A DNA stretch of 64,000 nucleotides, from positions 1,350,077 to 1,414,076 of the forward strand of contig OW818670.1 in NCBI GenBank assembly GCA_942493215.1, written 5' to 3'. Within the stretch, counting starts at the first letter, position 1; every line of letters starts with the position of its first letter. A program made the position numbers and the translations under genes. Below, piece by piece: positions 5,628-56,735 of the stretch. The notes under the pieces were generated by a model. It saw only the letters and a list, made by a program, of their open reading frames with translations, did not search any database and was not told where the DNA came from. Source of the stretch: an uncultured Bacillota bacterium. GTDB lineage: Bacteria; Bacillota_I; Bacilli_A; RF39; UBA660.

Positions 5628-6959
5628 ATGATAAGAAAATATGACTTCGATCGAATGCCTATAGTCGATATTGTTAATGCCATAATGGTAGATGCAGCAA
5701 AACGTGGAGCTAGTGATATTCACTTTGATCCACAAGATGAACTTTTAAAAGTAAGAATTCGTATAGATGGTGTATTAATGGATTATTCTGAAGTTCCTAA
5801 TATTTCGAAACGTAATCTTATCACTCGTATAAAAATTTTAGCTGGTATGAATATTACTGAATCACGTTTACCACAAGATGGAGCCATAAAACAAACTCTA
5901 GAAAACATTTCTATGGATATGCGTGTTTCCAGCTTGCCTACTAATCTAGGTGAAAAGATTGTTATTCGTATTCTTGACTACTCTATGAGTTTAAGTGGTC
6001 TAGAACATTTAGGATTTAGTGAAACAAATTACCATAAAGTATTAGAGATGATTAGTGCTCCTAACGGTATTATTTTAGTAACCGGTGCAACTGGTTCAGG
6101 TAAATCAACGACTGTATACTCTATTCTTCAAAGATTAAATCGTGAAGAAACAAATATTATAACGGTTGAGGATCCTATCGAAATGGAAATAGCTGGTGTT
6201 AACCAAGTTCAAATAAATACTGATATTGGTTTAACCTTTGCAACAACCTTACGTTCTATTTTACGTCAGGACCCTAATATCATTATGATCGGGGAAATTC
6301 GTGATAATGAAACAGCAAAAATTGCCGTTCGTGCTTCTATTACTGGACATTTAGTTTTATCAACACTACATACCAATGATACCTTAACATCTATTGAAAG
6401 ATTATTAGATATGGAAGTTGAACGTTACTTGCTTGCTAGTTCATTAACAGGTATAATATCACAAAAATTAGCTCGTCGGTTATGTACTAAATGTCGTTCA
6501 AAACGGCCTACTACTGATTATGAGAAAAATCTATTTCATTCTATTTTAAATAGAGATGTACCAGAGATATTCTCTAGTGTTGGTTGTGAAGAATGTGGCA
6601 ACGGTTATAAAGGTCGTATTGCAATTCATGAAGTACTATTAATTAATGATCAAATAAGAGAAGCAATCAGTAATAACGTTAATAAAGAAGTACTTAGAAA
6701 AATGGTTGAAAATACTGATTATGTTACCCTCCTCCAAGATGGATTAGAAAAAGTTATTAATGGTTCCACTACAGTTGAAGAAATTCTTAAATTAGTAATG
6801 CTTGAAAGCGAAGATGCGGAAATTGAAGCTGAAATGATGAAAGACCGTGAAAAGCTAGAAGAAGATAAAGATAAACCTTCAACATATATATTTAATGAGG
6901 AAAATAATAATCCTGTCGGGCAAAAACCAACTATTACTACTCCACCACTCAACGATTAA
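5628..6959 (+). CDS. pilB: Type IV pilus/T2SS assembly ATPase (PilB/GspE family), N-terminally short
   Basis: ASDIHFDP, RLPQDG, Walker A GATGSGKS, TVEDPIE, LRQDPNIIMIGEIRD, TGHLVLSTLH and two CxxC zinc motifs. Confidence 0.92.
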   Translation: MIRKYDFDRMPIVDIVNAIMVDAAKRGASDIHFDPQDELLKVRIRIDGVLMDYSEVPNISKRNLITRIKILAGMNITESRLPQDGAIKQTLENISMDMRVSSLPTNLGEKIVIRILDYSMSLSGLEHLGFSETNYHKVLEMISAPNGIILVTGATGSGKSTTVYSILQRLNREETNIITVEDPIEMEIAGVNQVQINTDIGLTFATTLRSILRQDPNIIMIGEIRDNETAKIAVRASITGHLVLSTLHTNDTLTSIERLLDMEVERYLLASSLTGIISQKLARRLCTKCRSKRPTTDYEKNLFHSILNRDVPEIFSSVGCEECGNGYKGRIAIHEVLLINDQIREAISNNVNKEVLRKMVENTDYVTLLQDGLEKVINGSTTVEEILKLVMLESEDAEIEAEMMKDREKLEEDKDKPSTYIFNEENNNPVGQKPTITTPPLND

Positions 6960-6991
6960 AAAAATAAGTTCAATAATGAACTTATTTTTTT
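6958..6991. terminator. Bidirectional intrinsic terminator between convergent pilB and pilD
   Basis: AAAAAATAAGTTCA-ATAA-TGAACTTATTTTTT perfect inverted repeat with A/T tracts on both sides. Confidence 0.85.
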
Positions 6992-7751
6992 ATGAAATAT
7001 AATTAATAATATCCATAAAATGGATCTGGGATAATAAAATTATTATACTAGCTATACCTAAGAAAGGTCCAAAAGGAATAATATGTTCCTTTTTTTTCAG
7101 CATAATGATAAATGCTATAGGTAACCCAATAATAGAAGCTAAAAAAATATTAATTATAGCTAATTGATAACCCAAAATCATTCCAATAATAAACATTAAT
7201 TTAATATCGCCACCACCCATTGATTCCTTCTTAAATAAAAAATCACCGGTTAGTTTGAGTAAATACATAATGATAAAAGCAACTGCCCCTTCTGCTAGCA
7301 TAAATAGGCCTGTTTTAATACCTTCGGATATAATAATCACTATCCATAATAATGACCCAAAAACAATTAATATTTCATCAGGTATAATAAGATATAGATA
7401 ATCACTAATAATTATTATAAGAATCATTGAAATAAATAATAGACTAATTAATAATTGCCATGAAAAGCCAAAAATTAAGTATGATAAAGCAAATAGGCAA
7501 CCAGTTGCACATTCAAATAAAGGATAAAAGCCTGATATTTTGGTATGACAATTACGACATTTCCCTTTTTGAAAAATAAAAGATAAAATAGGAATTAATT
7601 CCCATGGCGATAATTTATGATTACATTTTGGACAATGGGATGCGGGGCGGATTAACGATTCATGTTTAGGTAAACGATAACCCACCACATTATAAAATGA
7701 CCCAAAAACACAACCAAAGACAAAGAACACAACTATATAATATATTTCCAT
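6990..7751 (-). CDS. pilD: Prepilin peptidase/N-methyltransferase (PilD/ComC)
   Basis: GSFYNVVGYRLP, SHCPKC...GKCRNC zinc site, ISDYLY, MGGGDIKL, IPFGPFL. Confidence 0.93.
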   Translation of the reverse strand: MEIYYIVVFFVFGCVFGSFYNVVGYRLPKHESLIRPASHCPKCNHKLSPWELIPILSFIFQKGKCRNCHTKISGFYPLFECATGCLFALSYLIFGFSWQLLISLLFISMILIIIISDYLYLIIPDEILIVFGSLLWIVIIISEGIKTGLFMLAEGAVAFIIMYLLKLTGDFLFKKESMGGGDIKLMFIIGMILGYQLAIINIFLASIIGLPIAFIIMLKKKEHIIPFGPFLGIASIIILLSQIHFMDIINYIS

Positions 7752-7760
7752 ATAACACCT

Positions 7761-10256
7761 CTAATAATTACCATAACTTCCTATTGAAGAATACATATTA
7801 AACATCGGGATAATAACAGCCATGATAATTACGCCAACAATTGCTGTTAAAAAGACAATAAGAACGGGTTCAATAAGAGCTTTTAATCTTGATACCGAAT
7901 TTCGATGCAATTCTTGATAATAATCAGAAACTTTACCCATCATTTCTGGTAATTGTCCTGTTTTTTCACCTGTAACTAACATCTCATAAGCCGGAATAGG
8001 AAAAGCCCAAGAATTTTCAAATGATAATGAAATACGTTCACCACGATTTAAGTTCTCAATGGTTTTAGCAATCAATACTTTATATATTTCATTATTAGTA
8101 ACACGATTTAAGATATCCATACTATCTGTTATAAAAACATTATGTGATAATAATGATGAAAATGTTTTAGTAAACATTGTTACTTCATTATAAATCATAA
8201 TATTTCCCATAACTGGAAAATGCATACCCATCCATTGAAACATATACCTAAATAATTTTACATTAGTATATAAGAATCTTAATAATAATATAAATGCTAC
8301 CATTCCTATACCTAAATATATAATATTATCTTGCATAAAAGCACTAACTTTTGTAATAAAGACGGTGAATGCCGGAATAGATGCATTATCCATTGTTTTA
8401 TAAATATCTACAAATTTAGGAACAACATAAACCATTATAAAGCTCAATACACCAACCGCCATTATTAAGACAATCGTTGGATACGTAAGAGCCGAGATCA
8501 TTTGTTTTCTTGTTTGCTCTGTTTCGGTATAGTATTCAACCATATCATCTAATGTTTCGGGTAACTCACCAGTCATTTCCGCTGTTTTAACCATATTAAT
8601 CAATAATCTTGGGAAAGCATTACCTTGTTTAGTTAAAGCAATACTGAAATTTTCACCCATTGTTAAATCATAAATGATTATCTTAAAAATTAAAGAATAT
8701 TTGCCTTTTTGATATTGTTTTTCTAATATTTTTAAAGATTCAACTAAAGGTAACCCGGCCTTTATATAAGTTGATAATTGTGTTAGCATAAATATCAAGT
8801 CGGATGTCTTAATCTTACGATGAGCCATAGAAGAACCCTTATGTAATGTTCTAATAGCAAGGGAAGTCTTTATACTATATACTTCATATCCTTCACTAAT
8901 TAAAAAAGAATGGACTTCAACAATAGAAAAAGCATCAAAATAACCTTTTATAACCCTTCCAGTACTAATATCACGAACAATATATTCGTATAATATTTTG
9001 TCTTTACTCTTTATGGCATCAATACCTTCATAATCAATAACCATTTGCCGTTCTGGTATTTTGCTTTCAGTTGCAAAAGCCTGAGCAATTGGTGAAAAAC
9101 GAGCTTCTTCTTTTAAACGTTGTTTAATACGTTCTGGTATTTTATTAATCGCTTCAATCCAACGTTTAATTTTTGTTTCAAATGTTTCCTTTTCAACTTT
9201 AGCAAATACGACACTACGATCACGCTTTTCACGTTCACGCTGTCTGGCACGTTCCTCACGCGTTTTTATTTGTTCATAACGTAATTTATCAAGCTCTTTT
9301 TTCTCTAAGAACCTTTGAACAGCTTTTTCTTCTTGCTTTATTTTAGAAGCCCGCATCTGCTTAACAATAAAGTTTTGTAATGGTCCACTAATAAAGTTGA
9401 ATATCATTCTTAATGGTAACATAACACCTAGAAAGGCATATCTAATAAAACGATATAGAAGATAGAAGACAAATCCTATTCCCAAGAAGAAATACTTAAC
9501 AAAATGATATAAGCCAGTTGAAGTAGATAAGAATATTTTTGGTTGATATTTCTTTCTAACTTTAGGTTGCATTTTAATATAATTAATTTGAGGATGGTGT
9601 TGTTTATTTCTATTATATTTAGTTACCTTCTTTTTCTTTTTATTGCTTATCTTTTTAACAGGAACAGTAACTTTTTTAGCCGCTATAGCGTGTTTCTTAT
9701 GTTTAATCTTATTAGTTTCCATTGCTTTTTTTAATGGTCTAAAAATTAAACCAAATACTTTTTGTAAGCCAAGATAGAAGTATTTACATAATAAAACGAT
9801 ACCATGAATAATAAGACGAAATAAGTAAATTATTGTGTATTTAAAAATAAAATAAACACCTAAACATATGTAGGTAAATAATTTACTTAAATAGTGGAAT
9901 ACAAATGAACATCCCTTTGCTATATATTTAAATAAATAAGCAAGAACTTTCCCAATATAATGAAAAAATACATATATACCCTTGCATCCATAAAGAAATA
10001 TTTTCATAATAAAATCGAGTATCGTATGAATACCACGATAAAAATAGCTACTTAAAAACAATACAGTATGACCTAATGCATATACTATAAAGTGTAAACC
10101 CTTTAAACTATTAGTAAGTAAAACTTTGTAAATAATCCACACAAAAAAACAAGTACCAATACTAGCATACTTCAAAAGTATTATTGGTGTTTTGATAATA
10201 TAAAACAACGTTTTGTACATAAAAATAAATGGCAACCAGATTGCTCGTTTATTCAT
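7761..10256 (-). CDS. pilC: Type IV pilus platform protein PilC (T2SS F family) with ~420-aa N-terminal extension
   Basis: From about aa 422: YEYIVRD...KGYFDA, QLSTYIKAGLPL, AEMTGELPETL, ALTYP, GEKTGQLPEM, LIEP. Residues 1-420 are not PilC-like. Confidence 0.88.
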   Translation of the reverse strand: MNKRAIWLPFIFMYKTLFYIIKTPIILLKYASIGTCFFVWIIYKVLLTNSLKGLHFIVYALGHTVLFLSSYFYRGIHTILDFIMKIFLYGCKGIYVFFHYIGKVLAYLFKYIAKGCSFVFHYLSKLFTYICLGVYFIFKYTIIYLFRLIIHGIVLLCKYFYLGLQKVFGLIFRPLKKAMETNKIKHKKHAIAAKKVTVPVKKISNKKKKKVTKYNRNKQHHPQINYIKMQPKVRKKYQPKIFLSTSTGLYHFVKYFFLGIGFVFYLLYRFIRYAFLGVMLPLRMIFNFISGPLQNFIVKQMRASKIKQEEKAVQRFLEKKELDKLRYEQIKTREERARQREREKRDRSVVFAKVEKETFETKIKRWIEAINKIPERIKQRLKEEARFSPIAQAFATESKIPERQMVIDYEGIDAIKSKDKILYEYIVRDISTGRVIKGYFDAFSIVEVHSFLISEGYEVYSIKTSLAIRTLHKGSSMAHRKIKTSDLIFMLTQLSTYIKAGLPLVESLKILEKQYQKGKYSLIFKIIIYDLTMGENFSIALTKQGNAFPRLLINMVKTAEMTGELPETLDDMVEYYTETEQTRKQMISALTYPTIVLIMAVGVLSFIMVYVVPKFVDIYKTMDNASIPAFTVFITKVSAFMQDNIIYLGIGMVAFILLLRFLYTNVKLFRYMFQWMGMHFPVMGNIMIYNEVTMFTKTFSSLLSHNVFITDSMDILNRVTNNEIYKVLIAKTIENLNRGERISLSFENSWAFPIPAYEMLVTGEKTGQLPEMMGKVSDYYQELHRNSVSRLKALIEPVLIVFLTAIVGVIIMAVIIPMFNMYSSIGSYGNY

Positions 10257-43735: not shown

Positions 43736-43743
43736 TTTATCAC

Positions 43744-44379
43744 CTAATCCCGTAATTCTTTTCTTATTTTTTTATAATTAGGTACATATTTACTAACTAA
43801 ATTCCAAAAATTAGCTGAATGATCAAAATATACAAAATGCGATAATTCATGAATAATAACATAATCAATTTTACTAATATCATACTTTATTAAATCAAGA
43901 TTAAGGGTAATCGATTTATCTTTACGATTACATACACCCCATCTTGTTTTCATCTTCCTTATTTTTAATTTAGGGAAAGCAATATTTTCTTGAAAAGTAT
44001 CATACATTATTTTTAGTCTTTGTTCAAAAATAATTTTTGCTTCCACATTATAAAATTTAATAAGATCTTTACTTTCTCGAATATAAATCTTTTTATTTAT
44101 TTTATCTATATCTTCATAACTGTTTGTTAATATAATATCGTATTTTTCACCTAAATATAAATTATAATTATTACGTTCTTGTTTATTAGACTGCTTAAGA
44201 AGCATTTTACGTAAATAATCAGCATTATCATTTAATAATTTATATATTTGTTCTTTACTAACAAATCGATTAGCCGTTACACAAATTTTTAAATCTTCCG
44301 ATATCCGAATATATATATTTTTATTTCTTTTCCTAATTATTTCAACTATATATTCTTTATCATCTAATACATATTTCAT
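43744..44379 (-). CDS. YgjP/DUF45 (M48-like) zinc metallohydrolase
   Basis: KMKTRWGVCN, DYVIIHELSHFVYFDHS..FW. Confidence 0.88.
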   Translation of the reverse strand: MKYVLDDKEYIVEIIRKRNKNIYIRISEDLKICVTANRFVSKEQIYKLLNDNADYLRKMLLKQSNKQERNNYNLYLGEKYDIILTNSYEDIDKINKKIYIRESKDLIKFYNVEAKIIFEQRLKIMYDTFQENIAFPKLKIRKMKTRWGVCNRKDKSITLNLDLIKYDISKIDYVIIHELSHFVYFDHSANFWNLVSKYVPNYKKIRKELRD

Positions 44380-44418
44380 ATTCTTACCTCAATTGTATTT
44401 TACCATGATTAGACCAAT

Positions 44419-44450
44419 AAAAACAAGTATTAAAGGTTAATACTTGTTTT
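44419..44450. terminator. Intrinsic terminator after the 44462-46039 gene
   Basis: AAAACAAGTATTAA-loop-TAATACTTGTTTT. Confidence 0.8.
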
Positions 44451-44461
44451 AAATTAATAAT

Positions 44462-46039
44462 TTAATATATTTGGATTAGAAAAACATGACCAGTATTATT
44501 AACAGCAAATAAATGATTATTGTCTACTATCTTAATATCAATAATATTCTTAATAGTAAGTGATAAATCTAGTTTACTATTATATATACTAAGAACACTA
44601 TCAACATTTATTTTGTAATATGATTTACCAAATAATTGTAGCCCAGAAATAACCTTATTTTCTATTAATTTACTGTTTACCATATCAATGGTCAACATTG
44701 TACTATAAAAGGTTCTTTTATCACTAGCTGACCCGCCGTTGTTACCTTCTGAATAAATGGCTTCAACATCATAATAATTATTGTTATATTGATTTTTTCT
44801 TAATTGAATATCAACACTAGTCGCATTATTATTTGTAATTCCCATTGTTCCGATAAGCTGATTATTACTATTATAAAAATTATAATTATTATTGTTTTTT
44901 TGATATAGAATTACCATATTATCTATATCATCAATTAATAATTCTCTATTTTCATATTTTTGTATACCACCATTATTTTTAATAATACTAGTTGTACTAG
45001 AATTACCTATATATAAATTATTATTAATGTCTAAATATATTTTATAGTCTGATATGTCGCCATTAAACTCAGCAACTACTTTATGATCTTTCTCAATCAT
45101 AATCTTATTATCTTTTACTAATACATTATACTCACCATATGGAACATACCACAAGTAATTATCTTTTATTTTTGCACCAGTAATATTATAAACCGAATAT
45201 AAATTGTTTTTTGATAAAGCCACTTCATTTAAATCTTTATTAATAATAGCATAATCATAAATAACATCAAATATTATCTTTCCATTTCTATCAATAAGAC
45301 CGTATTTATTATTACTATTAATTGCAATAAAATATTTATCACTTTGGATTTCAATTAAATTAAAGCCTGATTCTGATACTTCTTCAAAATATTTACTTTG
45401 ATTTAATTTTAAACTATTTAAAGAAATTAGCTTTTCCATCTTATCATCAAGCAAATATATACTATTTATGCCATCATTTGATACGTTAATACCATAATAT
45501 TTTTTATCTAGTATCAATAAATTAACACTATCAACTGTTAATAATACTTTACCAGTGTTAACATCATATATTAAGTATTTATTACCTATTTTAGTAATAT
45601 AGTAATTGGATATATCATAATCACAATTATAAGTATCATCAAACAGTTTGACACCATCTAAATATAAATATTTTGAATTTTTATCTTTATCATCCTTATA
45701 TACTCGTAACATATTACTCATCATCGGATTACCATCAAAGCTAGTTATTTGATTCTTATTTCTTATTAAATAATAGTTTTTGTCAATACCTTTTAAATAA
45801 TAATTACCATATAATACTTTAAATTCTATCTTTGAACTATCTATTTGTTTAAAATTATTATCAAGTAAGAAGTAATCTTTACCACTTCTTACTTGATTTA
45901 TACCATCCATATTACTAATCAGTTGATCATATTCCTTGATAATTTTTGCTCCCGATTTATTATAAAAAATAATGGACAAAACTACACTAACAACTAGAAT
46001 AAAAACTATGATCATAATATATGTTTTTTTATCTTTCAA
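44462..46039 (-). CDS. Membrane-anchored beta-rich protein with a WG-like repeat
   Basis: TTG start after GGAGG; N-terminal TM; NNKYGLIDRNGKIIFDVIYD; many short beta-strand-like repeats. Confidence 0.6.
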   Translation of the reverse strand: MKDKKTYIMIIVFILVVSVVLSIIFYNKSGAKIIKEYDQLISNMDGINQVRSGKDYFLLDNNFKQIDSSKIEFKVLYGNYYLKGIDKNYYLIRNKNQITSFDGNPMMSNMLRVYKDDKDKNSKYLYLDGVKLFDDTYNCDYDISNYYITKIGNKYLIYDVNTGKVLLTVDSVNLLILDKKYYGINVSNDGINSIYLLDDKMEKLISLNSLKLNQSKYFEEVSESGFNLIEIQSDKYFIAINSNNKYGLIDRNGKIIFDVIYDYAIINKDLNEVALSKNNLYSVYNITGAKIKDNYLWYVPYGEYNVLVKDNKIMIEKDHKVVAEFNGDISDYKIYLDINNNLYIGNSSTTSIIKNNGGIQKYENRELLIDDIDNMVILYQKNNNNYNFYNSNNQLIGTMGITNNNATSVDIQLRKNQYNNNYYDVEAIYSEGNNGGSASDKRTFYSTMLTIDMVNSKLIENKVISGLQLFGKSYYKINVDSVLSIYNSKLDLSLTIKNIIDIKIVDNNHLFAVNNTGHVFLIQIY

Positions 46040-46067
46040 AATAATACACCTCCATATAGGCATTTAA

Positions 46068-49000
46068 TTAATGTGTACATTGGGTTGAAGCAGTTACATC
46101 CGCATGCCAATATTGAATTCCATAATAGGCTCCATTACTACCTTTTACCGAACAATTAGTATCGGTATAGGCACTAGTATGCCAATCAACCACTATTCCT
46201 GGGCATGGACAACTACTTTGGCCACCACTTTGGCCTTCACAATAATATGGGACTTCAGCAGCAAGGTGGTTAAAACAACGATAGTAACCATTCGATTCAG
46301 CACTAGAACCCGAAACACCATCTATTCTACTAGATAATGTAAATACACCATTGGTAGAATTAAAAGACAAGTTTCTGTAATACGTATGGGTTGCAACGCC
46401 TTGACACCACCACCATGAATCAGTTATATTGCTCCATTCATATATCTGCACACAATAAACGGCATACAAAGTTGTATCCGATCCCGTATAATAGTCGCCG
46501 GGATGGTATATTGCTGCCCCACCAGCCGTGGTTGACCAACCGGTAAATATATAACCAGTTCTAGTTGGCGCAACCGAACTTAAGTAAGTCCCTGATCCGG
46601 TATAGGTAGTAGTAGCTGGTGCACCAGTACCACTCCCTACTGCATAATATATATAATGAAGTTGAATAAATTGAAAAGCATTACTAGTAGTAATAGCCGT
46701 ATTACCTGCACCATCAACCGCCTTTACCCATAAATAATAGGTTACAGTACTATTTATGGCTTTCGTTAATGTTTGACCGCTAGTGAATGTTGTTGCAAAA
46801 GTTGGTTGAACAGTATTAGAAGTACTCCACTCATACTGTAAAGAGCTTATATTACTACCGCCACTATCATTTACCGTAACAGTACTACTTTGTGATTGTG
46901 TTTGAGTAGGATTGCCATTAGGACTATAGGTAACTGTAGGAGCTGTTTTATCCATTTTAACCGTTTGATTGGCAGGACAGGTAAAACTGTTACCAGCCGT
47001 GTCATTAACATTGCCTGGTGACTCCGTTGTCGAATTGGTATTAACACTATAAACTTTTGTAATATTACCTACGCAACCACTTCCACCCGTATCACTACAA
47101 GTTCCGGTTAGTGTCAGATTAGTATTGCGCCATGTAGCGCTTCCACCACTTGATGTACAAGTAGGAGCTGTTTTATCTATTTTAACCGTTTGATTAGCCG
47201 AACAAGTAACACTGTTACCAGCATTATCACTGACTGATCCTGGCGACTCCGTTGTTGAATTGGTATTAGCACTATAAGCTTTTGTAACATTACCTACGCA
47301 ACCACTACCACCCGTATCACTACAGGTTCCCGTTATAGTTAAATCCGTATTACGCCATGTAGCACTCCCACCACTTGGAGTGCAAGTAGGAGCTGTTTTA
47401 TCTATTTTAACCGTTTGATTAGCGGGACAGGTAAAACTGTTACCAGCCGTGTCATTAACATTGCCTGGTGACTCCGTTGTCGAATTGGTATTAACACTAT
47501 AAGCCTTTGTAACATTAGCTACACAGCCACTACCACCCGTATCACTACAGGTTCCGGTTAGTGTTAGATTAGTATTGCGCCAAGTGGCACTTCCACCACT
47601 TGATGCACAAGTAGGTACCGTTTTATCAATCCTTACCGTTTGATTAGCCGAACAAGTAACACTATTACCAGCATTATCACTGACTGATCCTGGCGACTCC
47701 GTTGTTGAATTAATCTCGTTTGTATAACTTTTTGTTATATTACTAACACAACCACTGCCACCATCACTACAAGTTCCAGTTAATGTCAAGGTGGTATTAC
47801 GCCAAGTACTACTTCCACCGCTTGATGCACAAGTAGGAGCTGTTTTATCAATCCTTACCGTTTGATTAGCTGAACAAGTAACACTATTACCAGCATTATC
47901 ACTAACACTTCCAGGCGATTCGGTTGTTGAATTAATCTCATTTGTATAATTTTTTGTTATATTACCTGCACAACCACTACCACCATCACTACAAGTTCCG
48001 GTTAATGTTAAAGTGGTATTACGCCAAGTACTACTTCCACCGCTTGATGCACAAGTAGGAGCTGTTTTATCAATTCTTACCGTTTGATTAGCTGAACAAG
48101 TAACACTATTACCAGCATTATCACTAACTGATCCCGGTGACTCCGTTGTTGAATTAATTTCATTTGTATAATTTTTCGTTATATTACCTGCACAACCACT
48201 ACCACCATCACTACAAGTTCCAGTTAATGTCAAGGTGGTATTACGCCAAGTGGCACTTCCACCGCTTGATGCACAAGTAGGTGCCGTTTTATCAATCCTT
48301 ACCGTTTGATTAGCCGAACAAGTAACACTATTACCAGCATTATCACTAACTGATCCTGGTGACTCGGTTGTTGAATTAATTTCATTTGTATAATTTTTTG
48401 TTATATTACTAACACAACCACTACCACCATCACTACAAGTTCCAGTTAAGGTTAAAGTGGTATTGCGCCATGTAGCACTTCCACCACTTGATGCACAAGT
48501 AGGTGCCGTTTTATCAATTTTTACAGTCTGATTAGCTGGACATACAGTACTATTACCAGCATTATCACTAACTGATCCCGGTGACTCGGTTGTTGAATTA
48601 ATTTCATTTGCATAAATTTTGATTACAGTAGCTGCCGCACATAAACTATCACCATCACTACAAGTTCCGGTTAATGTTAAATCTGTACTACGCCAAGTAC
48701 TACTTCCTCCAGTTGATGCACAAGTAGGTGCTGTCTTATCAATCTTTATATTATGCAAAACTGATATAGTACTAACATGTCCAACATTATCAATAGAACG
48801 AACATAATACGTTTGATTTTCTTCATTAGTAACAGTACGAGGATTACTCATATCATACCAATTAGTTGTATCGTTAGAATATTGATACTTATTAATACCT
48901 GAATCTATATCTGTCGAATATGGTATTTGCACAACTGAATGATTAGTCCAAACACCACTTGTATAAATAGATCCATTTATAGAATCAAGTTTTAATGTCA

Positions 49001-50654
49001 CAGTTGGTGTACTTGGATCAGTATTATCAACCTTCGTTACATTAACATTACACGTCCCAATTCGACTAACACCATCTTTGACATAAGCCGTATAAGTACC
49101 ATTATTTGTTACATTAAAAGTTGTTGAACTTGTCGTGGCCGTATAATCACTATCACCCGGCTTTTTAATAGCAACAACTCCGCTTTCACTATCATTACCT
49201 GTTATTGTTAATGTAGCATTGGTTACCCAAGTAGTAGGATTTCCCGTTATATTACAAGTTGGTGAATTCTTATCAATTTTAGTAACTGTAACACTACAAG
49301 TATTGGTATTACCCGCTACATCTTTAACACTTGCTATATAAGTTCCATTATCTGTAACATTTAAGGTTGTTGAAGAAAGGGCTAAATACTCACTATTCCC
49401 TGGTAATTTTATTCCGGCTACCCCACTATCACTATCATTACCTGTTACAGTTAGAGTAGCATCTGTTACCCAGCTAGTTGGATTTCCTATTATATTACAA
49501 GTAGGTAATGTCTTATCAATATTTGTAATAGCGTAATTAACAATACTACTTTCTTGACCTTCATCATCACGGGCTTGCATTTTGATATTCTGATTTGTAG
49601 AATAATTTCTACTTGGGCTAGATTGCCATGTTGACCCGCCATCAAAGGAATATGGTTGACTAGCAAGTGGATTATTATGAACTGGTAAGATAGTGACAAC
49701 TACATCTTGATTAGTCCATAATGAAGTATTTAATTTATAATTAATAAATATTTCTTTACCAATATTTTTAACTACGGCCATTATAATTAAACGACCAATA
49801 TTATTACTACTATCTTTAGCTTCATATATTAACTCATAGTCACCTTCAACATTCGTATTAACATTACCATCAATTGTTGCAGTAATTGCTTCCCCACTAT
49901 TATCGCTAACTGCAGCATCTGGTATATTAAAAGTACTACCCTTTTTTACAATCATCTTGTAATTAATATTAATACCATTAACCATTAAAGTAGGCGCTAA
50001 AGTATCATGAACAATAACATTACGACTAACACTTGCTGATGAACCATTAGACATATCTGTTGCAACATAAGTTATTATATATGTACTTAACTCGTTGGTT
50101 TTTATGTCTGATGCTGGTTTACCATTCTTCATAATAAATGTTGTTATACTTGCTATTTGATTACCATCTTTATTTCGAGCTTGTACTCCTTTTTCATTAT
50201 AACCACCATTTATTTCTACATATTCAGTAGGACTACCATTTAATATTATAAAAGGAGCTTCATTATCAAATCCCTGATCACTACTGCTAGCATTTTCAAT
50301 ATTATAAAGATAAGAATTATTTTTCTTAGTAACAACAACTAAAACATTATCCCCAAATCTCTGTTCTGTTTTAGGATTGGTAAGATCTTTTTTTACAAAG
50401 CCTTTTGATTTTAGCTCACCTAACGTAATAGTAATAGTATCACCATTATTATGTGGCATCAAATATAAGTTAGCACTACCCCATGCTACGGCACCTTTTT
50501 TAATGCTTTCAATCTGAACATCATATAATTTTTCTTTTTGACTTCTAATTGTTCCCGTTACAATAGGAATAGCGATAGCTAGCATTAAAGACAATAATGC
50601 TATAACTACAACTAATTCAACTACGGTCATACCTATTTTATTTTTCTTTTTCAT
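46068..50654 (-). CDS. Giant prepilin-type adhesin (~1528 aa): Ig-like stalk, eight Cys repeats, InlB B-repeat, Cys-rich tip
   Basis: Class III signal IG|MTVVE; two DUF5011-like domains; DKxxP Ig repeats; PTRTGYIFTGWST...TTLYAVY Listeria/Bacteroides repeat; terminal domain with 8 Cys. Confidence 0.85.
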   Translation of the reverse strand: MKKKNKIGMTVVELVVVIALLSLMLAIAIPIVTGTIRSQKEKLYDVQIESIKKGAVAWGSANLYLMPHNNGDTITITLGELKSKGFVKKDLTNPKTEQRFGDNVLVVVTKKNNSYLYNIENASSSDQGFDNEAPFIILNGSPTEYVEINGGYNEKGVQARNKDGNQIASITTFIMKNGKPASDIKTNELSTYIITYVATDMSNGSSASVSRNVIVHDTLAPTLMVNGININYKMIVKKGSTFNIPDAAVSDNSGEAITATIDGNVNTNVEGDYELIYEAKDSSNNIGRLIIMAVVKNIGKEIFINYKLNTSLWTNQDVVVTILPVHNNPLASQPYSFDGGSTWQSSPSRNYSTNQNIKMQARDDEGQESSIVNYAITNIDKTLPTCNIIGNPTSWVTDATLTVTGNDSDSGVAGIKLPGNSEYLALSSTTLNVTDNGTYIASVKDVAGNTNTCSVTVTKIDKNSPTCNITGNPTTWVTNATLTITGNDSESGVVAIKKPGDSDYTATTSSTTFNVTNNGTYTAYVKDGVSRIGTCNVNVTKVDNTDPSTPTVTLKLDSINGSIYTSGVWTNHSVVQIPYSTDIDSGINKYQYSNDTTNWYDMSNPRTVTNEENQTYYVRSIDNVGHVSTISVLHNIKIDKTAPTCASTGGSSTWRSTDLTLTGTCSDGDSLCAAATVIKIYANEINSTTESPGSVSDNAGNSTVCPANQTVKIDKTAPTCASSGGSATWRNTTLTLTGTCSDGGSGCVSNITKNYTNEINSTTESPGSVSDNAGNSVTCSANQTVRIDKTAPTCASSGGSATWRNTTLTLTGTCSDGGSGCAGNITKNYTNEINSTTESPGSVSDNAGNSVTCSANQTVRIDKTAPTCASSGGSSTWRNTTLTLTGTCSDGGSGCAGNITKNYTNEINSTTESPGSVSDNAGNSVTCSANQTVRIDKTAPTCASSGGSSTWRNTTLTLTGTCSDGGSGCVSNITKSYTNEINSTTESPGSVSDNAGNSVTCSANQTVRIDKTVPTCASSGGSATWRNTNLTLTGTCSDTGGSGCVANVTKAYSVNTNSTTESPGNVNDTAGNSFTCPANQTVKIDKTAPTCTPSGGSATWRNTDLTITGTCSDTGGSGCVGNVTKAYSANTNSTTESPGSVSDNAGNSVTCSANQTVKIDKTAPTCTSSGGSATWRNTNLTLTGTCSDTGGSGCVGNITKVYSVNTNSTTESPGNVNDTAGNSFTCPANQTVKMDKTAPTVTYSPNGNPTQTQSQSSTVTVNDSGGSNISSLQYEWSTSNTVQPTFATTFTSGQTLTKAINSTVTYYLWVKAVDGAGNTAITTSNAFQFIQLHYIYYAVGSGTGAPATTTYTGSGTYLSSVAPTRTGYIFTGWSTTAGGAAIYHPGDYYTGSDTTLYAVYCVQIYEWSNITDSWWWCQGVATHTYYRNLSFNSTNGVFTLSSRIDGVSGSSAESNGYYRCFNHLAAEVPYYCEGQSGGQSSCPCPGIVVDWHTSAYTDTNCSVKGSNGAYYGIQYWHADVTASTQCTH
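46956..48743 (-). repeat. Intragenic tandem array, 8 units of 222-225 bp (74-75 aa)
   Basis: Unit IDKTAPTC.SSGGS.TWRNT.LTLTGTCSD(T)GGSGC..N.TK.Y....NSTTESPG.V.D.AGNS.TC.ANQTV(K/R); 1788 bp = 596 aa; 4 Cys per unit. Confidence 0.95.
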
Positions 50655-50732
50655 CACCATTCTCCTTGCAACTATATTTAATAATCTTGTTTATAATATC
50701 AAAGATATTATAAGAAGACTTAGGATGGCATT

Positions 50733-50739
50733 TTCGACA
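50733..50739 (-). promoter_or_regulatory. Possible Spo0A box upstream of the giant pilin gene
   Basis: TGTCGAA on the coding strand 79 bp upstream of the start; palindromic TGTCGACA at 50848-50855. Confidence 0.3.
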
Positions 50740-50885
50740 CTATCTACTAATAAGACATATATTATAATCATAATTATCTTATATATTTATTATATCAGAA
50801 TATTATAGGTCTTTTCAATCATTATCGTTTTTTTTATTATGTATAATTGTCGACAGAAAGTGATAACACTCATTTTTGTTCTTAT

Positions 50886-50925
50886 AAAAATAAAAAGTAG
50901 ATTATTGCTTTAAAATAATCTACTT
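50886..50925 (-). terminator. Intrinsic terminator after the 50955-54050 pilin gene
   Basis: AAGTAGATTATT-loop-AATAATCTACTT with a T tract on the minus strand. Confidence 0.8.
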
Positions 50926-50954
50926 ATAACTAATAAATATGTTTTTTTTATAAA

Positions 50955-53900
50955 CTATGGTTGTATTGTTAGTTTAGCATAACCACTACCAGTTCGACCA
51001 GTCATTGTTCCACCTGATGGATTTGGCATAGAAGCATTACCAGCAGTTGTTGAACCACTCGTAACACCACCTGTATAGGAAGAACCACCACCACCGCCAT
51101 AGTAGTTAGTTGCAGCAGCTCCACCGCCCCAGTAACCGCCACCACCGCCACCTCGGCTTGTAGTACTACCATTACCACCAGTTCCAGATAATCCACCTGA
51201 ACTACCTCCGGCAGATTGAGTACCTCCGGCACCACCGGAACCAGCAGCTGCGATACCAGATGTACCGCCACCAGCACCGCCATAATAATTGGTATAACGG
51301 CCGCCAGAACCGCCGCCACCACCAGCAACAATTATACGATTAGATAAAGCTGTACCACCAGAACGAACATCAGTAGCACCACCTCCGGTACCACATCTAT
51401 AAGTAGAGGTTGTATTACCGTAGGCACTACCTCCTCCATTAAAACCGCCGGCCTGACTCACTGCCGTGGTGCCAGTTATTGCACCAGCTCCACCTACGTA
51501 AATATATATGCTAGTACCAGATGTTAAACTTTTATAACCAGTTGCATATCCGCCTTTACCACCAATTGTACCACTAACAGTAGAACTTCCACCTTCAGCA
51601 CCCCAAACTTGAATTAAATAATTGCCAGTAAGAGGAACATTAAATGTTTGAGAAGCACCTGTATAAGCAAATGTATATACACTAGCAATGACGGTAACTG
51701 TTCTAGTACCTGTTGCCGTATTAGTAGCCGAATCGGTCGCAGTATAAGTTAAAGTATAAGTTCCCGCGGTAGGACTAACTGTACCACTAACGGAAATAGT
51801 AGGAGTTATTCCACTATTATCGGTAGCACTTGCTCCCGTCATATTATTAAATGCTGCCACTTGATTATCTGCTAATGTAATAGCAGCAGGAGTAGTTAAT
51901 ACTGGTACTGTTTTATCAACTTTAACCGTTTGATCAGCTGGACAAGTAACACTATTACCAGCATTATCACTTACATTTCCAGGCGATTCCGTTGTTGAGT
52001 TAGTGAAAGTACTATATGTTTTGGTAGCATTACCAACACAACCACTATCACCTGTATCACTACACGTTCCTGTTAATGTTAAATCGGTTTTTACCCAACT
52101 TGCATTTCCTCCACTTGAGGTACAAGTTGGTGCTGACTTATCAACCTTAATACTATGAGAAGTTGAATTATTACTAACATTACCGACATTATCTATAGCC
52201 CGTACATAATAAGTTAGATTTTCTCCAGTAGTAATACTACGTGGATTACTCATATCATACCAAGTGGTTGTATCATTAGAGTATTGATATTTATTAATAC
52301 CTGAATCAGCATCCGTTGAAGAAGGTATTTGGACAACTGTATGATTAGTCCATGTACCACTGGTATAAGCTGATCCACCCGTTGTATCAAGTTTTAATGA
52401 TACTGTTGGTGTACTTGGACTAGTAGTATCTATTTTAGTTACATTAACATCACATGTACCAATCCGATCAACTGCATCTTTTACATAGGCTGTATAAGTA
52501 CCATTACTTGTTACATTAAAGGTCGTACTAGTAGTTGCGATATAATCACTATCCCCTGGCTTTTTTATGCCAACAACTCCACTTTGAGTATCACCACCCG
52601 TTATTGTTAATGTAGCACTTGTTACCCAACTAGTTGGATTACCAGTTATTGTACAAGTTGGTGAAGCATCATCAATCTTTGTTACATTAACACTACAAGT
52701 ATTAGTGTTACCGGCTCCATCTTTAACACTAGCTGTATATTGTCCATTAGTAGTAACATTAAATGTTGTTGATGAAACCGATAAATAATCACTACCACCT
52801 GGTAACATTATTCCATCCAAACCACTTTCACTATCACTACCAGTTACCGTTAATGTTGCACTATCTGCCCAGTTAGTAGGATTATCAGTTATATTACAAG
52901 ACGGTAAGTTTTTATCAATATTAGTAATATTATAACTAACAACATCACTTTTTAACTGATAACGGTCTCGGGCTTGCATTCTAACAGTCTGATTACTAGA
53001 AAAAGCTTTGCTGGCACCAGATTGCCATGTTAACCCACCGTCAAAGGAATATGCCTGACTAGCAAGCGGAGTATCATTAACAGGTGCAATAGTCATAGTA
53101 ACATCTTGATTAGTCCATAATGAAGTACTAGCACTATAATTTATATAAATATTATTAACAATACTTTTTACCAGTATAGTTAAAACTAAACGACCAATAT
53201 TACTATTTTTGTCTTTAGCTTCATATGTTAGATCATAGCTTCCTTCAACACTAGTATTAACCGTTCCTTTAATTGTTGGGGTAATATTTTGATCACTATT
53301 ATCATCAACAACCGCCGTTGGATTACTAAAAGTACTATCTTTTTTAACTATCATTGTTTGATTAGCATTAATACCATTGACCATTAAAATAGGTGCGATA
53401 GTATCACGTACAATCACATTACGATTAACACTTGATGATTTACCATTAGATATATCGGTTGCTACATAGGTTATAATATAGGTACCAGCACTACTTGTTG
53501 ATATTGATTCCGTTTTACCATTTTTTTTAGTAAAAGTTGTTATACTTGTTATCTGATTACCATCTTTATCTCGAGCCTGAACTCCTTTTTCAACATAAGT
53601 ACCATTTATTTCAGTATACTCCGTAGCACTTCCATTTAATATTATATAAGGGGCATCTTTATCAAATGTCTGATCACTATTACTGATATTTTCAACATTA
53701 TAAAGATAAGTATTATTCTTTTTAGTAACTACTACTAAAACATTATCAGCAAATTTTTGCTCTGTTTTAGGATTAGTAATATCCTTTTCAACATAACCTT
53801 TAGATTTTAATTCGCCTAACATAACCGATATACTGTCACCCTCATCGGCTGGCAATAAATATAAATTGGCACTACCCCACGCTATAGCGCCTTTTTTTAT

Positions 53901-54050
53901 ATTTTCAATCTGAACATTATATAAATCTTTCTTCTGATTTTTTATAGCATTGTTTAATGTCGGAATAACTATTGCCATCATTAAAGCAATCAAAGATATT
54001 ACAACAATCATCTCAACCGTTGTCATACCACTATTATTCTCTTTAAGCAT
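50955..54050 (-). CDS. Large prepilin-type adhesin (~1031 aa), paralogue of 46068-50654, ending in a glycine-rich (ALK/LTK-like) domain
   Basis: Class III signal SG|MTTVE; same N-terminal ~630 aa architecture; one Cys repeat unit; YTGASQTF...QVWGAEGG...GGGATDVR...GGGGSSY. Confidence 0.85.
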   Translation of the reverse strand: MLKENNSGMTTVEMIVVISLIALMMAIVIPTLNNAIKNQKKDLYNVQIENIKKGAIAWGSANLYLLPADEGDSISVMLGELKSKGYVEKDITNPKTEQKFADNVLVVVTKKNNTYLYNVENISNSDQTFDKDAPYIILNGSATEYTEINGTYVEKGVQARDKDGNQITSITTFTKKNGKTESISTSSAGTYIITYVATDISNGKSSSVNRNVIVRDTIAPILMVNGINANQTMIVKKDSTFSNPTAVVDDNSDQNITPTIKGTVNTSVEGSYDLTYEAKDKNSNIGRLVLTILVKSIVNNIYINYSASTSLWTNQDVTMTIAPVNDTPLASQAYSFDGGLTWQSGASKAFSSNQTVRMQARDRYQLKSDVVSYNITNIDKNLPSCNITDNPTNWADSATLTVTGSDSESGLDGIMLPGGSDYLSVSSTTFNVTTNGQYTASVKDGAGNTNTCSVNVTKIDDASPTCTITGNPTSWVTSATLTITGGDTQSGVVGIKKPGDSDYIATTSTTFNVTSNGTYTAYVKDAVDRIGTCDVNVTKIDTTSPSTPTVSLKLDTTGGSAYTSGTWTNHTVVQIPSSTDADSGINKYQYSNDTTTWYDMSNPRSITTGENLTYYVRAIDNVGNVSNNSTSHSIKVDKSAPTCTSSGGNASWVKTDLTLTGTCSDTGDSGCVGNATKTYSTFTNSTTESPGNVSDNAGNSVTCPADQTVKVDKTVPVLTTPAAITLADNQVAAFNNMTGASATDNSGITPTISVSGTVSPTAGTYTLTYTATDSATNTATGTRTVTVIASVYTFAYTGASQTFNVPLTGNYLIQVWGAEGGSSTVSGTIGGKGGYATGYKSLTSGTSIYIYVGGAGAITGTTAVSQAGGFNGGGSAYGNTTSTYRCGTGGGATDVRSGGTALSNRIIVAGGGGGSGGRYTNYYGGAGGGTSGIAAAGSGGAGGTQSAGGSSGGLSGTGGNGSTTSRGGGGGGYWGGGAAATNYYGGGGGSSYTGGVTSGSTTAGNASMPNPSGGTMTGRTGSGYAKLTIQP
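51921..52145 (-). repeat. Single copy of the 75-aa Cys repeat found eight times in the neighbouring paralogue
   Basis: VDKSAPTCTSSGGNASWVKTDLTLTGTCSDTGDSGCVGN...NSTTESPGNVSDNAGNSVTCPADQTVK. Confidence 0.9.
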
Positions 54051-54165
54051 TACACTCACCTCAAAACTAAATACCATATTTGCTAATATTGTTAAAATAT
54101 AAAAAAAGGGATGGTCTAAAAAAATGAATAAATCACTAAATAAACCACCCCGTTAAATTATAATT

Positions 54166-55653
54166 TTATTGTAAAAACATAAATACAACAAAAGTCATTA
54201 TTAATATTATTCCGGCAATAGCAGCTAGATACATCCAACTCTTTTTGAACCATTCTTTATAAGAAACTTCAAAATAAGATAATCCAGCAACTAAAACTAA
54301 ACTTGTTGGTAAAACCAACATTAATAAGCTATTTATTGTTTGGAAAATAAATCCAATAATTGGAAACATAGATGCATCAGTATAAACAGCAGATAAAACT
54401 CCAAATGTATTACCAAATAAATGTAATAAATTATTGAAATATAATGATCCTACTCCGGCTACACCAACCATCTTTACTAATGATAGGATATTAGTTGCTC
54501 CACCAGTACCTACCATCTTATTAATAATAGTAAAGTATTGTGAATCAAAAGCTGAAGAAGAAGAATTAGCATAAGCTAAAACAAATACTACATTAGCTAA
54601 TGTTACATAAATAGCTGTTGGTAACATCTCTTTTGCGCCTTCAACAAATGAATCCATAATATCTTTAAACTTCAAGCTATATAACCAACCAACTAATAAA
54701 CCACCAATTAATAATATCATTGATAATTCAATAGTATCCCAGTTACCCATTGGAGTTAAAGTTCCAAGTAAACTTTTAACGATTGAAAAACCGCCAATTT
54801 TAAAGTTTGTAACTGAAGTATATAAGTCATTAAAGAATTGAATTTTAAATACATAATACCAACTAAACATACCAACGATTGCTACAAGCAAAATAACAGC
54901 AACAGCAATAATTAATGGCATAAAGCTTTTATTCTCTACTTCATAATCATTAAATAAAATAGTTTTTACTTTATTAGTAGGTATAACCTCTTCCTTTTTA
55001 GTGACTTTCTTTTTAGTAGCAACTACCTTTTCTTCTTTTTCAATATCTTTTGATCCAAAGAACCATAAATATGCTACTAAAGTACCTGTAACAAGGAAAA
55101 ATAAGATTACTTTAGCTAATATAATATTATTAACACCATCACTTAAGTAGTATGCAAATATATGATTTATATCAGCACCGGCTAAACTTCCTATTGAACC
55201 TATTAAGATAGCTCCAACTGTTGCAATCATCGCCGTAACTTTCTTATATCCTAATAATAAGATAATTGTTGCTAAGAATGGAACTAATACAAATAAAAAT
55301 AATGATAAGCCTGTCAAAGATGATAAAAGGGCTAAGATAGCAGCAATAACAACTAAGATTAATTTTTCATTGCCACGGGCAGCACTAACAATCTTATTTA
55401 CAAGTTTGCTGTACACTCCTGTCTTATTAAGTATTCCATAAAATCCACCAATAACTAAAAACAATAAACCATATTGTCCAAATAAGTTAAAAGCTTGAAT
55501 AGGATACGTAATTAAGTCTGGTAACCCAATTGCTGTAATATCTCCTTTCGTAAATGTTGCACCAGAATAACTTCCAACTGGTATAATCCAAGAAAGGAAA
55601 ACAACTACCAAGAATGTTATGCCTAATGCTTTTAATAAACTGTTCTTTTTCAT
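54166..55653 (-). CDS. YfcC-family (C4-dicarboxylate anaerobic carrier-like) transporter
   Basis: About 12 TM segments; LSWIIPVGSY, LVIGGFYGILNKTG and LVLPTS motifs. Confidence 0.75.
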   Translation of the reverse strand: MKKNSLLKALGITFLVVVFLSWIIPVGSYSGATFTKGDITAIGLPDLITYPIQAFNLFGQYGLLFLVIGGFYGILNKTGVYSKLVNKIVSAARGNEKLILVVIAAILALLSSLTGLSLFLFVLVPFLATIILLLGYKKVTAMIATVGAILIGSIGSLAGADINHIFAYYLSDGVNNIILAKVILFFLVTGTLVAYLWFFGSKDIEKEEKVVATKKKVTKKEEVIPTNKVKTILFNDYEVENKSFMPLIIAVAVILLVAIVGMFSWYYVFKIQFFNDLYTSVTNFKIGGFSIVKSLLGTLTPMGNWDTIELSMILLIGGLLVGWLYSLKFKDIMDSFVEGAKEMLPTAIYVTLANVVFVLAYANSSSSAFDSQYFTIINKMVGTGGATNILSLVKMVGVAGVGSLYFNNLLHLFGNTFGVLSAVYTDASMFPIIGFIFQTINSLLMLVLPTSLVLVAGLSYFEVSYKEWFKKSWMYLAAIAGIILIMTFVVFMFLQ

Positions 55654-55787
55654 ATTCTACCTCCATTATCATTATAGCATTTTTATTAACAGTTACAAGA
55701 TTTTTTTTATATTTTTCGCCTATTTTTCATAAAAATAACCATTCTTTACAATATTTTGTGTTATGATAAACAAGGAAGTGATGATTA

Positions 55788-56735
55788 ATGTCTAATTTTT
55801 TATATTCATATAATAATAAAAGATATCATACTTTAGATTATTTTTATCATCAGAAATTTAATTGTAAAATTTCTAAAATAAGTTTAAATGCAGGTTTTAC
55901 TTGTCCTAACATAGATGGTACGGTGGGAACTGGTGGCTGTATATATTGTTCAAAAATGGGCAGTGGTGAATATGCTGGTGATAAAAATGATGATTTAATT
56001 ACCCAATTTAATAATGTTAAAAAGATTATTAGTAAAAAATGGCCACAAGTAAAATATATTGGATATTTTCAAGCTAATACTAATACTTATGCACCATTAG
56101 AAATATTAAAAGGAAAATATGAAACAATATTAAAACTTGATAATGTTGTTGGACTAGCTATTGCTACTAGAAGTGATGCTATAAGTGATGAATGTTTAGA
56201 TTATTTAGAAAAATTATCGAAACAAACCTTTTTAACTATTGAACTTGGTTTACAAACTGTTCATGAGAGTACTTCTATTCTAATAAATAGATGTCATACT
56301 TTAGATAATTTTACTAATATGGTTAAGAAGTTAAGAACCCGAAATATAAATGTTATTGTCCATATAATTAATGGTTTACCGTATGAAACTAAAGAAATGA
56401 TGATTGAAACAGTAAAATACTTAAATGATTTAGATATTCAAGGAATTAAAATTCATATGCTTCAAATCTTAAAAAATACACCTTTAGCTTATCGATATGA
56501 AACTAATCCCTTCCCTGTTTTAGATCTTAATGAATACGTTGATATTGTCTGTGATCAATTAGAATATTTACGACCAGAAATCGTTATTAATAGGGTCACG
56601 GGTGATCCCAAAGTTGAAGATTTAGTTGTGCCATTATGGACAACTAAAAAATTTGTTGTAATGAATAATATTGATAAAGAATTACAAAGACGTAATACTT
56701 ATCAAGGATATAAACTAGAAAAAAAAGAAATCTAA
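55788..56735 (+). CDS. TIGR01212 (YhcC/YtqA)-family radical SAM protein
   Basis: GFTCPNIDG...GCIYC, YFQANTNTY, IELGLQT, HIINGLP, GIKIHML. Confidence 0.92.
   Translation: MSNFLYSYNNKRYHTLDYFYHQKFNCKISKISLNAGFTCPNIDGTVGTGGCIYCSKMGSGEYAGDKNDDLITQFNNVKKIISKKWPQVKYIGYFQANTNTYAPLEILKGKYETILKLDNVVGLAIATRSDAISDECLDYLEKLSKQTFLTIELGLQTVHESTSILINRCHTLDNFTNMVKKLRTRNINVIVHIINGLPYETKEMMIETVKYLNDLDIQGIKIHMLQILKNTPLAYRYETNPFPVLDLNEYVDIVCDQLEYLRPEIVINRVTGDPKVEDLVVPLWTTKKFVVMNNIDKELQRRNTYQGYKLEKKEI

Follow-up and report, generated by a model that had tools for sequence, protein, structure and literature searches.

A 64,000-nucleotide (nt) stretch from an uncultured Bacillota bacterium (contig OW818670.1, positions 1,350,077 to 1,414,076; hereafter, the window) carries two very large neighboring genes, A and B, whose products begin alike and end differently. 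The locus raises the question of what these proteins are, how they came to combine a shared proximal part (hereafter, the chassis) with different distal ends (tips), and whether recombination between the two genes still switches the tips. The explanation that we favor with moderate confidence is that A and B are separately transcribed, paralogous modular type IV pilins that arose by an old tandem duplication and then gained or replaced their distal parts.

Two genes with a common proximal part and unrelated ends

The open reading frames (ORFs) extend over 46068..50660 (A) and 50955..54077 (B), and the start codons fall inside both. The starts favored were at 50654 for A (ribosome-binding site AAGGAGA, then ATG GTG ATG) and at 54050 for B (ribosome-binding site GAGGTGAG, then ATG), and a database record lookup showed that products of exactly 1528 and 1031 amino acids (aa) exist, from a single NCBI contig of 1,494,278 bp. 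BLASTP gave an alignment of 720 aa with 69% identity (E = 0) between residues 2-720 of A and 9-725 of B (ORF numbering), and the DNA was 76.2% identical across 2130 aligned nt. The sequence-only reading of the locus had described a shared chassis of about 630 aa with different tips. The sharing was confirmed, as was the presence in both products of the three motifs it quoted, but the extent was too short, as the common part measures about 716-718 aa at 69-70% protein identity and runs through the first Cys-repeat unit. One of the four beta-sandwich modules that follow the immunoglobulin-like (Ig) pair in B is an OmpL47-type domain.

The Cys repeat is present in eight copies in A and one in B, as had been claimed. 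Tandem Repeats Finder reported a period of 222 bp and 8.1 copies at 46936-48748. The A units are 72-93% identical in DNA overall (units 2-5, 91-93%; units 6 and 8, 91.6%) and share exact runs of 41-78 nt. Beyond the chassis and the Cys units the ends of A and B are unrelated to each other, also by their Pfam domains. In a word-based search with the A tip, P0151-P0154 matched the Big-like and Flg_new modules only. The Cys-rich end of A had no homologue among 1.84 billion representative proteins, and a HMMER search with it returned A itself plus two repeat-type matches only. A distantly similar motif (S.AE.NGY..YYRC) closes the gene upstream of the pilin in the related locus L027. Pseudogene status was considered for A and B and rejected, as both frames are intact and the ratio of nonsynonymous to synonymous change (dN/dS) is about 0.3 (over 710 codons; proportions of differing synonymous and nonsynonymous sites, pS 0.45 and pN 0.18).

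Table 1. Coordinates in the window of genes A and B, their parts, the signals between them and the candidate pilus machinery.
Feature	Position	Strand	Description
Gene A, predicted modular type IV pilin	46068..50654	minus	1528 aa, mature about 159 kDa
A pilin module	50280..50654	minus	leader MKKKNKIG, Glu +5, Pro +22, helix 11-61, beta-strands 73-120
A chassis	48741..50258	minus	two DUF5011 Ig domains at 49761-50258, then four beta-sandwich modules
A stalk, 8 tandem Cys-repeat units	46953..48740	minus	222-225 bp, 74-75 aa, 4 Cys each
A tip, Big-like module	46650-46952	minus	first of three parts of 46071..46952
A tip, Flg_new repeat (Listeria-Bacteroides repeat)	46458-46649	minus	Pfam
A tip, orphan Cys-rich domain	46071-46457	minus	129 aa, 8 Cys
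Gene B, predicted modular type IV pilin	50955..54050	minus	1031 aa, mature about 105 kDa
B pilin module	53676..54050	minus	leader MLKENNSG, cut after Gly predicted, Glu +5, hydrophobic alpha-1, small beta-sheet
B chassis	52143..53654	minus	two DUF5011/Bact_surface_Ig-like domains at 53160-53654, then four beta-sandwich modules
B single Cys-repeat unit	51918..52142	minus	75 aa, 4 Cys
B tip as a whole	50958..51917	minus	49% identical to Ig plus glycine-rich domain (GRD) end of pilin P0026
B tip, third Ig-like domain	51651-51917	minus	Pfam PF16403 Bact_surface_Ig-like
B tip, ALK/LTK-type GRD	50964-51629	minus	Pfam PF12810 ALK_LTK_GRD, E 2.5e-27
Terminator-like hairpin after B	50884..50925 (about)	minus	perfect 12 bp, AU-rich, then U-run; UUUUUAUUUUU
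Promoter-like site for A	50818..50789	minus	TTGAAA-18-TATAAT with TG (extended -10); 11/12 consensus matches
PilB/GspE-like assembly ATPase	5628..6959	plus	PF00437, E 9e-126
Prepilin (A24) peptidase	6990..7751	minus	PF06750 and PF01478
PilC/GspF-like platform protein	7761..10256	minus	831 aa, T2SSF part only residues 422-826
Modular pilin-like protein	1713-3791		692 aa; leader MLKNNKG/FTVVE, GRD, F5/8 type C discoidin domain
Modular pilin-like protein	3828-5528		566 aa; leader MKKIFNRG/FMLVE, then 'tip X'

The N-termini are predicted to be pilins

A motif scan found prepilin-like leaders in both products, MKKKNKIG/MTVVELVVVIALLSLMLAIAIP in A and MLKENNSG/MTTVEMIVVISLIALMMAIVIP in B (the slash marks the predicted cut), each ending in Gly at -1, with a Glu at +5 inside a hydrophobic stretch of about 20 residues. 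A family profile (A3) made from 75 family members, A and B included, was run against PDB sequences and matched the N-termini of Geopilin (1.4e-9), Streptococcus sanguinis PilE1 (8pfb; 7.9e-8) and MshA (1.1e-6), and further those of Thermus PilA, GspG and PilE. The B N-terminus gave weak matches to GspG and ComGE. An AlphaFold model of A residues 1-300, built on the family alignment, had a mean predicted local distance difference test score (pLDDT) of 92.7 and showed the pilin 'lollipop', a long N-terminal helix on a small beta-sheet, followed by two beta-sandwiches for which a fold search returned Ig-like domains from chitinase 60, SraP and Rib. The Pfam N_methyl family (PF07963) passes its threshold in relatives (25.4 bits in L001, 22.9 bits in L008) and is found on many family matches, and source databases label relatives of A and B as ComGC, PulG, PilA or 'prepilin-type N-terminal cleavage'.

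Genes for a peptidase, an assembly ATPase and a platform protein share the window with A and B. The ATPase has its best NCBIfam matches to GspE and PilB, rather than to ComGA or PilT. Two further pilin-like genes adjoin this machinery, on bases that differ from the A/B chassis. No family matched the N-terminal 420 aa of the platform protein, in which hydrophobic segments precede a stretch rich in Lys, Arg and Glu. Sequence, profile, model and context tests all support A and B as predicted type IV pilins, and the description 'giant pilins' was thus borne out.

Several observations weigh against this identification. The N_methyl match of A reaches 16.2 bits, below the cut-off of 21.2, and the same scan of B gave no match. 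Residue +1 is Met in both proteins, the commoner pilin residue being Phe. The fold search with the A chassis model returned Ig-like proteins and no pilin, because the two sandwiches dominate the model, and the AlphaFold model of the A tip was unusable (pLDDT 43.8). The pilus machinery lies 36-44 kb from A and B, and a motif scan of the window found no gene for a short major pilin. Processing, filament incorporation and binding of A and B are predictions only.

In a different explanation, the pilin-like N-terminus would serve for export and anchoring only. The alpha-1 helix would then keep A and B, as surface-displayed fibrillar adhesins, in the membrane or on a very short pseudopilus, and they would not be subunits of a long pilus. 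We consider this unlikely, but it is the main rival reading. Class III signal peptides are used by archaeal sugar-binding proteins for surface assembly without long filaments. The arms of A and B are very large (105-159 kDa), a major pilin gene is missing from the window, the chassis pilin genes sit among housekeeping genes and far from the machinery both in the window and in relatives, and the same stalk modules as in A and B are carried by non-pilin surface proteins, for example P0008 and P0027. On the other side, a complete assembly set of ATPase, platform and peptidase genes adjoins two further modular pilins, and the modular pilins with solved structures are filament-presented (PMC8179133, PMC9934059). 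The sequence itself is compatible with either reading.

Chassis pilins form a family in which tips are replaced

The first 290-300 aa, comprising the pilin module and the two DUF5011 Ig domains, define the family. There were 246 matches at E up to 1e-5, all from metagenome-assembled genomes (MAGs) or metagenomes of uncultured gut Bacilli or 'Tenericutes'. Among the best 120 of the 246, 77 are tipless (270-310 aa) and 25 have one module of ~190 aa. The other tips in this subset are GRD, DUF6273, a conserved domain referred to as tip X, L006-type, L007-type and HYR/PKD-type Ig strings, giving at least six tip classes among its tipped members. The literature that was searched holds no paper pairing DUF5011 with pilins; the combination of a pilin with two DUF5011 Ig domains is a previously undescribed pilin family.

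Tip X spans ~400 aa with the motifs WYDY..KEWAN, HPAF.F, GFWVGKFE and MEWGAVAYL, and had no Pfam, NCBIfam or PDB sequence match. It forms the C-terminal 400 aa of the 3828-5528 product and is carried by P0003, P0005 and P0007; it was also found in L003, L005, L008, L009 and the first ORF of L001, on two different pilin bases. The recurrence of GRD and tip X on two other pilin bases indicates that carriers and end modules combine freely. In two 'Tenericutes' MAGs (L014 5698-7290 and L015 4921-6513) the chassis is split among separate genes, namely a 122-aa pilin that matches the pilin module, a second pilin of 145 aa and, after it, a 264-aa membrane protein bearing the two Ig domains.

An exact look-up of A across contigs gave no match. 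At 90% identity, neither A nor B nor any of six flanking proteins clustered with another protein, apart from a 40-aa fragment that joined B. A scan of GTDB genomes gave relatives at 28-39% identity only, and scans of JGI metagenomes gave nothing, or distant module matches at 54% or less.

Replacement of tips was followed in three alleles of one locus from a species more distant within the family, L009 (MAG BRZ_PA__bin23), L021 and L023. L021, whose pilin P0004 has a GRD tip, is 97.8% identical in DNA to L009 from the upstream DUF421 gene to pilin codon 290, and the match resumes at 94.8% over the final 9 nt of the pilin gene and on into the downstream Mur-ligase gene; between these limits 795 bp stand in place of 1175 bp of unrelated sequence. 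Over the 1.8 kb that lead up to the chassis end, L023 (P0003) matches L009 at 98-100% (91-97% in a few windows farther upstream), and past the chassis the identity decays to 59-88%, the tips being of the same class and 68% identical in protein. By this DNA comparison the chassis/tip junction is a sharp recombination boundary in the species. The 3' anchor of the replacement is the downstream flanking gene, and the exchange was therefore between strains, not between paralogues.

The locus of A and B itself has syntenic counterparts. In L024 (also L025 and L026) the order is RsgA, Rpe, a 161-aa gene, a radical SAM gene, a DcuC-type transporter and two chassis pilins, and the flanks are 78-82% identical in DNA to 54093-59700 of the window. 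The first pilin (g1) is complete at 297 aa and ends right after the second Ig domain, where B continues for 734 residues further; the second (g2) begins 94 nt after g1 and is cut by the contig end. A beta-lactamase/PBP-like gene at 56749-57810, between the 161-aa and radical SAM genes of the window, is absent from the syntenic interval of L024 (1857-1941). In L027, which is likewise cut by a contig end, an A/B-like pilin gene comes after a gene that closes with a TC-type module and a Cys-rich end. Reading by eye showed, between the two, a hairpin with T-run and then a promoter-like TTGACA/TATACT pair. The Cys-rich end there has only a weak pairwise match to the A tip (E 0.002). At L027 2380-2520 the reading frame of this pilin gene, P0160, ends after 582 aa and the chassis resumes in another frame, which could reflect a true disruption, a frameshift or a fault in the assembly.

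The L024 and L027 loci indicate that the tandem layout is common to relatives and that the sequence after the chassis is not. At the level of these sequences, tip replacement at the chassis junction is demonstrated as a habit of the family, between strains and between species. The survey of related loci thus found different tips on a shared chassis, and the proposal of duplication followed by tip exchange agrees both with the L024 tandem pair and its tipless g1 and with the replacements in L021, L009 and L023.

A more speculative extension, which we regard as tentative and on the whole unlikely, takes the chassis as a portable 5' recombination anchor, past which tips, and here whole stalks, would be swapped as cassettes between strains and occasionally between paralogues. 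Natural transformation would be the route, and the outcome would be a shufflon-like diversification of tips at the population level without a dedicated recombinase. The scar of one such exchange would be the synonymous step at codon 43 of A and B, where third-position differences fall from 0.62 before to 0.33 after (permutation P = 0.006). Genes for ComEC and ComEA at 14442-17160 encode a DNA-uptake channel alongside the pilus machinery, and their presence bears on the exchange of tip alleles between strains.

The duplication is probably old, and A and B show no recent exchange

The identity of A and B in 90-nt windows ranged from 62 to 87% and was fairly even along the chassis, with no near-identical tract in any of these windows and hence no sign of recent conversion. 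Identical runs extend to 27 nt at most, where permutations that placed the 507 differences randomly gave a mean of 24.5 (P = 0.28), and only three in-register runs reach at least 20 nt. For all pairs among A, B, g1 and g2, pS was 0.33-0.71, close to saturation for a genome so rich in A and T at third codon positions, and the dating of the duplication is therefore rough. Beyond codon 105, A and B had a pS of 0.38-0.45 versus 0.42-0.57 in cross-species pairs. Counting against the favored history, 200 bootstraps of a tree of the first 165 aa joined B with g1 127 times, A with B 68 times and g1 with g2 once. On these counts the duplication could be about as old as the split from L024 and not older. 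Overall, the sequence comparison fits an old tandem duplication, possibly with one old partial homogenization.

The sequence-only reading went further and proposed that recombination between the shared segments of A and B could produce chimeras or delete one gene, and so provide a recombinase-free route to adhesin switching. We consider such recombination in the present population, with chimeras, deletions or converted tips as its products, very unlikely. There are about 2.15 kb of direct homology, the third-position step at codon 43 and the lower A-B divergence past codon 105 are each compatible with one old conversion, the family swaps tips at the chassis junction, and ComEA and ComEC are present. 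However, the two genes are 76% identical with a longest shared run as short as chance predicts, and no homology that could close a conversion tract was found 3' of the tips. A tblastn search of the window with A and B revealed no silent copy, only the 39%-identical GRD of pilin 1713-3791. In the window, no ORF of at least 120 aa matched a recombinase family, and apart from one weak inverted pair there were no repeated short target sites. Crossing over between the direct repeats would remove 3.4 kb irreversibly and would therefore not be a switch, and the 3' anchor used by relatives is the flanking gene, so that exchange there is between strains. Homologous recombination also needs RecA, and 'recombinase-free' can therefore mean only free of a site-specific recombinase. 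On these comparisons, there is no support for an active switch that works by A-B recombination. Given the exact runs of 41-78 nt in the A repeats, and by analogy with periscope proteins (PMC8201768), a change in stalk length would be the more plausible fast variation at A.

Two observations had been named as telling against the whole proposal, namely uniformly old divergence without conversion and orthologous loci that always keep the same tips. The former, old divergence without recent conversion, was found, whereas the latter was not, as related loci differ in their tips.

Signals between the genes and the genomic setting

The terminator noted between the genes corresponds to a terminator-like AU-rich hairpin with a U-run (-12.3 kcal/mol, z -2.4). 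It was not called by a consensus terminator scan, because that scan demands 3 G-C pairs. The promoter-like site upstream of A is a candidate by consensus match only, and upstream of B, between it and the transporter gene, there is a further hairpin with T-run. With the hairpin and the promoter-like site between them, A and B would be transcribed separately. An Rfam scan of 43000-56000 gave no match.

The gene at 44462-46039, 29 nt downstream of A, encodes 525 aa from a TTG start that was confirmed by exact look-up; the product is membrane-anchored and matches the WG repeat weakly. Co-transcription of this gene with A is probable, and no counterpart was seen beside the pilins in relatives.

A 28-nt inverted repeat (46004-46031 / 50748-50775) brackets the whole of gene A. 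Its arms agree at 24/28 positions, the pair is unique in the window at ≤6 mismatches and 0/40 shuffles gave such a pair, but the arms, very rich in A and T and with a core that is palindromic, may have arisen by chance. That A is an invertible element, which inversion would uncouple from its promoter, is barely credible even with this match and with one arm lying between the promoter-like site and the A start codon, as a rough estimate gives 0.1-0.2 chance matches for such AT-rich pairs, the other arm falls within codons 3-12 of the downstream gene (start 46039) so that inversion would break that gene, no window ORF of at least 120 aa matched a recombinase family, and on reading no such arm was seen upstream of L024 g2.

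The window is chromosomal, and its housekeeping neighbors include RlmN, a PP2C phosphatase, a PASTA kinase, RsgA, Rpe and a GyrB/ParE-type topoisomerase subunit, as well as FtsA/FtsZ, SpoIIGA with a sigma factor, and CotH. Proteins with 90% or higher identity to this FtsZ belong to MAGs labeled Erysipelotrichaceae or Bacilli. The GC content is 28% in the window and higher in A and B, because of their Thr/Ser/Gly/Asn-rich composition. At third codon positions it is 0.16-0.18 in A and B, the same as in the neighboring genes, and A and B are therefore resident genes. A recent horizontal origin of the locus was rejected, given these third-position values and the compositional nature of the excess. 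At 37849-40809, a 986-aa CotH kinase protein has three lamin-tail domains and Fn3-associated/CHB_HEX_C modules, and VTC and DUF4956 genes adjoin.

A model for A and B as modular pilins

If A and B are modular type IV pilins, the A24 peptidase would remove the 8-residue leader ending in Gly, and the pilin module, an alpha-1 helix of ~50 residues on a small sheet, would let the PilB- and PilC-like machinery load the proteins into a filament. By analogy with PilB and PilC of S. sanguinis, A and B may sit at the filament tip, the most likely position for an appendage of 105-159 kDa. The arm would be fibrillar-adhesin-like, with Ig-type modules forming its stalk, in the order of two DUF5011 Ig domains, four beta-sandwich modules, one (B) or eight (A) Cys modules and an unrelated end. 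The two ends would presumably bind different ligands at different distances from the cell, and the genes may be regulated separately. The origin of the pair would lie in a tandem duplication, followed by gain or replacement of everything past the chassis and by an expansion of the A repeats.

Through modular pilins, simple filaments can acquire new functions, yet few of these proteins have been studied, and none is known to have been studied from the uncultured small-genome Bacilli of animal guts. The window would provide four of them together with one assembly machine, and the adhesin-like arms of A and B greatly exceed in length any described before. Should the tips prove to be adhesins, the locus would be a likely determinant of gut attachment and would mark niche differences at the strain level. 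Neither tip X nor the Cys-rich end of A has known relatives, and both domains would be worth solving.

Comparison with known systems

In Neisseria, pilE varies by RecA-dependent gene conversion from pilS, promoterless silent cassettes in which conserved segments flank the variable part on both sides. The exchange proposed for A and B would resemble this system in that pilins vary by homologous conversion from related copies; unlike pilE/pilS, the window holds no silent copy and A and B have no homology 3' of the tips. The shufflon-controlled PilV tip adhesin of IncI plasmids R64 and TP114 (PMC5430464, PMC9045228) likewise joins a constant N-terminal part to alternative C-terminal ends, which in PilV set binding specificity. 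The shufflon rearranges one gene by means of the Rci recombinase, which acts on repeated sfx sites, whereas A and B are two complete genes with no recombinase found in the window. As far as the sequence tells, the defining parts of either form of variation are absent from A and B.

Periscope proteins and fibrillar adhesins, among them SasG, Rib and Sgo_0707 (PMC8201768, PMC9704523) resemble A in using a tandem array of near-identical folded modules as a stalk that projects an end domain. The DNA identity of the A units (91-93% in units 2-5, with runs to 78 nt) would permit intragenic recombination as in these proteins, although it is lower than in the most variable of them. A and B differ from them in their anchor, which is the N-terminal pilin module and not a C-terminal LPXTG motif; the polarity is therefore reversed, with the functional end at the C-terminus.

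Among pilins, CofB of enterotoxigenic Escherichia coli, TcpB of Vibrio cholerae and GspK are minor pilins with extra domains for which a tip location is proposed (PMC8179133). As in these, the pilin module of A and B is followed by additional beta-rich domains. Unlike A and B, they measure only some hundreds of residues and are parts of type IVb or type II secretion systems in diderms, and profile and sequence searches found no similarity of A and B to them.

The nearest known counterparts are the modular type IV pilins PilB (with a vWA module) and PilC (with a lectin module) of S. sanguinis (PMC8179133, PMC9934059). A and B have the composition by which Raynaud et al. (2021) define modular pilins, a pilin module joined to further domains, here Bact_surface_Ig-like, Flg_new, ALK_LTK_GRD and OmpL47-type. 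They share with PilB and PilC a class III signal peptide, a small pilin module, C-terminally grafted modules that are not pilus-specific, a monoderm host, several such pilins per genome and a proposed role as tip-presented adhesins. They differ in that the arm has 900-1400 aa and 8-16 beta-sandwich modules in place of one module on a short loop, that the end modules are GRD or Flg_new plus a Cys-rich orphan, and that the genes form a tandem paralogous pair outside the pil cluster. In the InterPro survey of 2021, modular pilins reached 860 residues at most (PMC8179133). Modular pilins as such were already known, and what A and B add are members of an undescribed subfamily in which tip cassettes demonstrably turn over, of larger size, with a fibrillar stalk, different end modules and a tandem arrangement away from the pil cluster.

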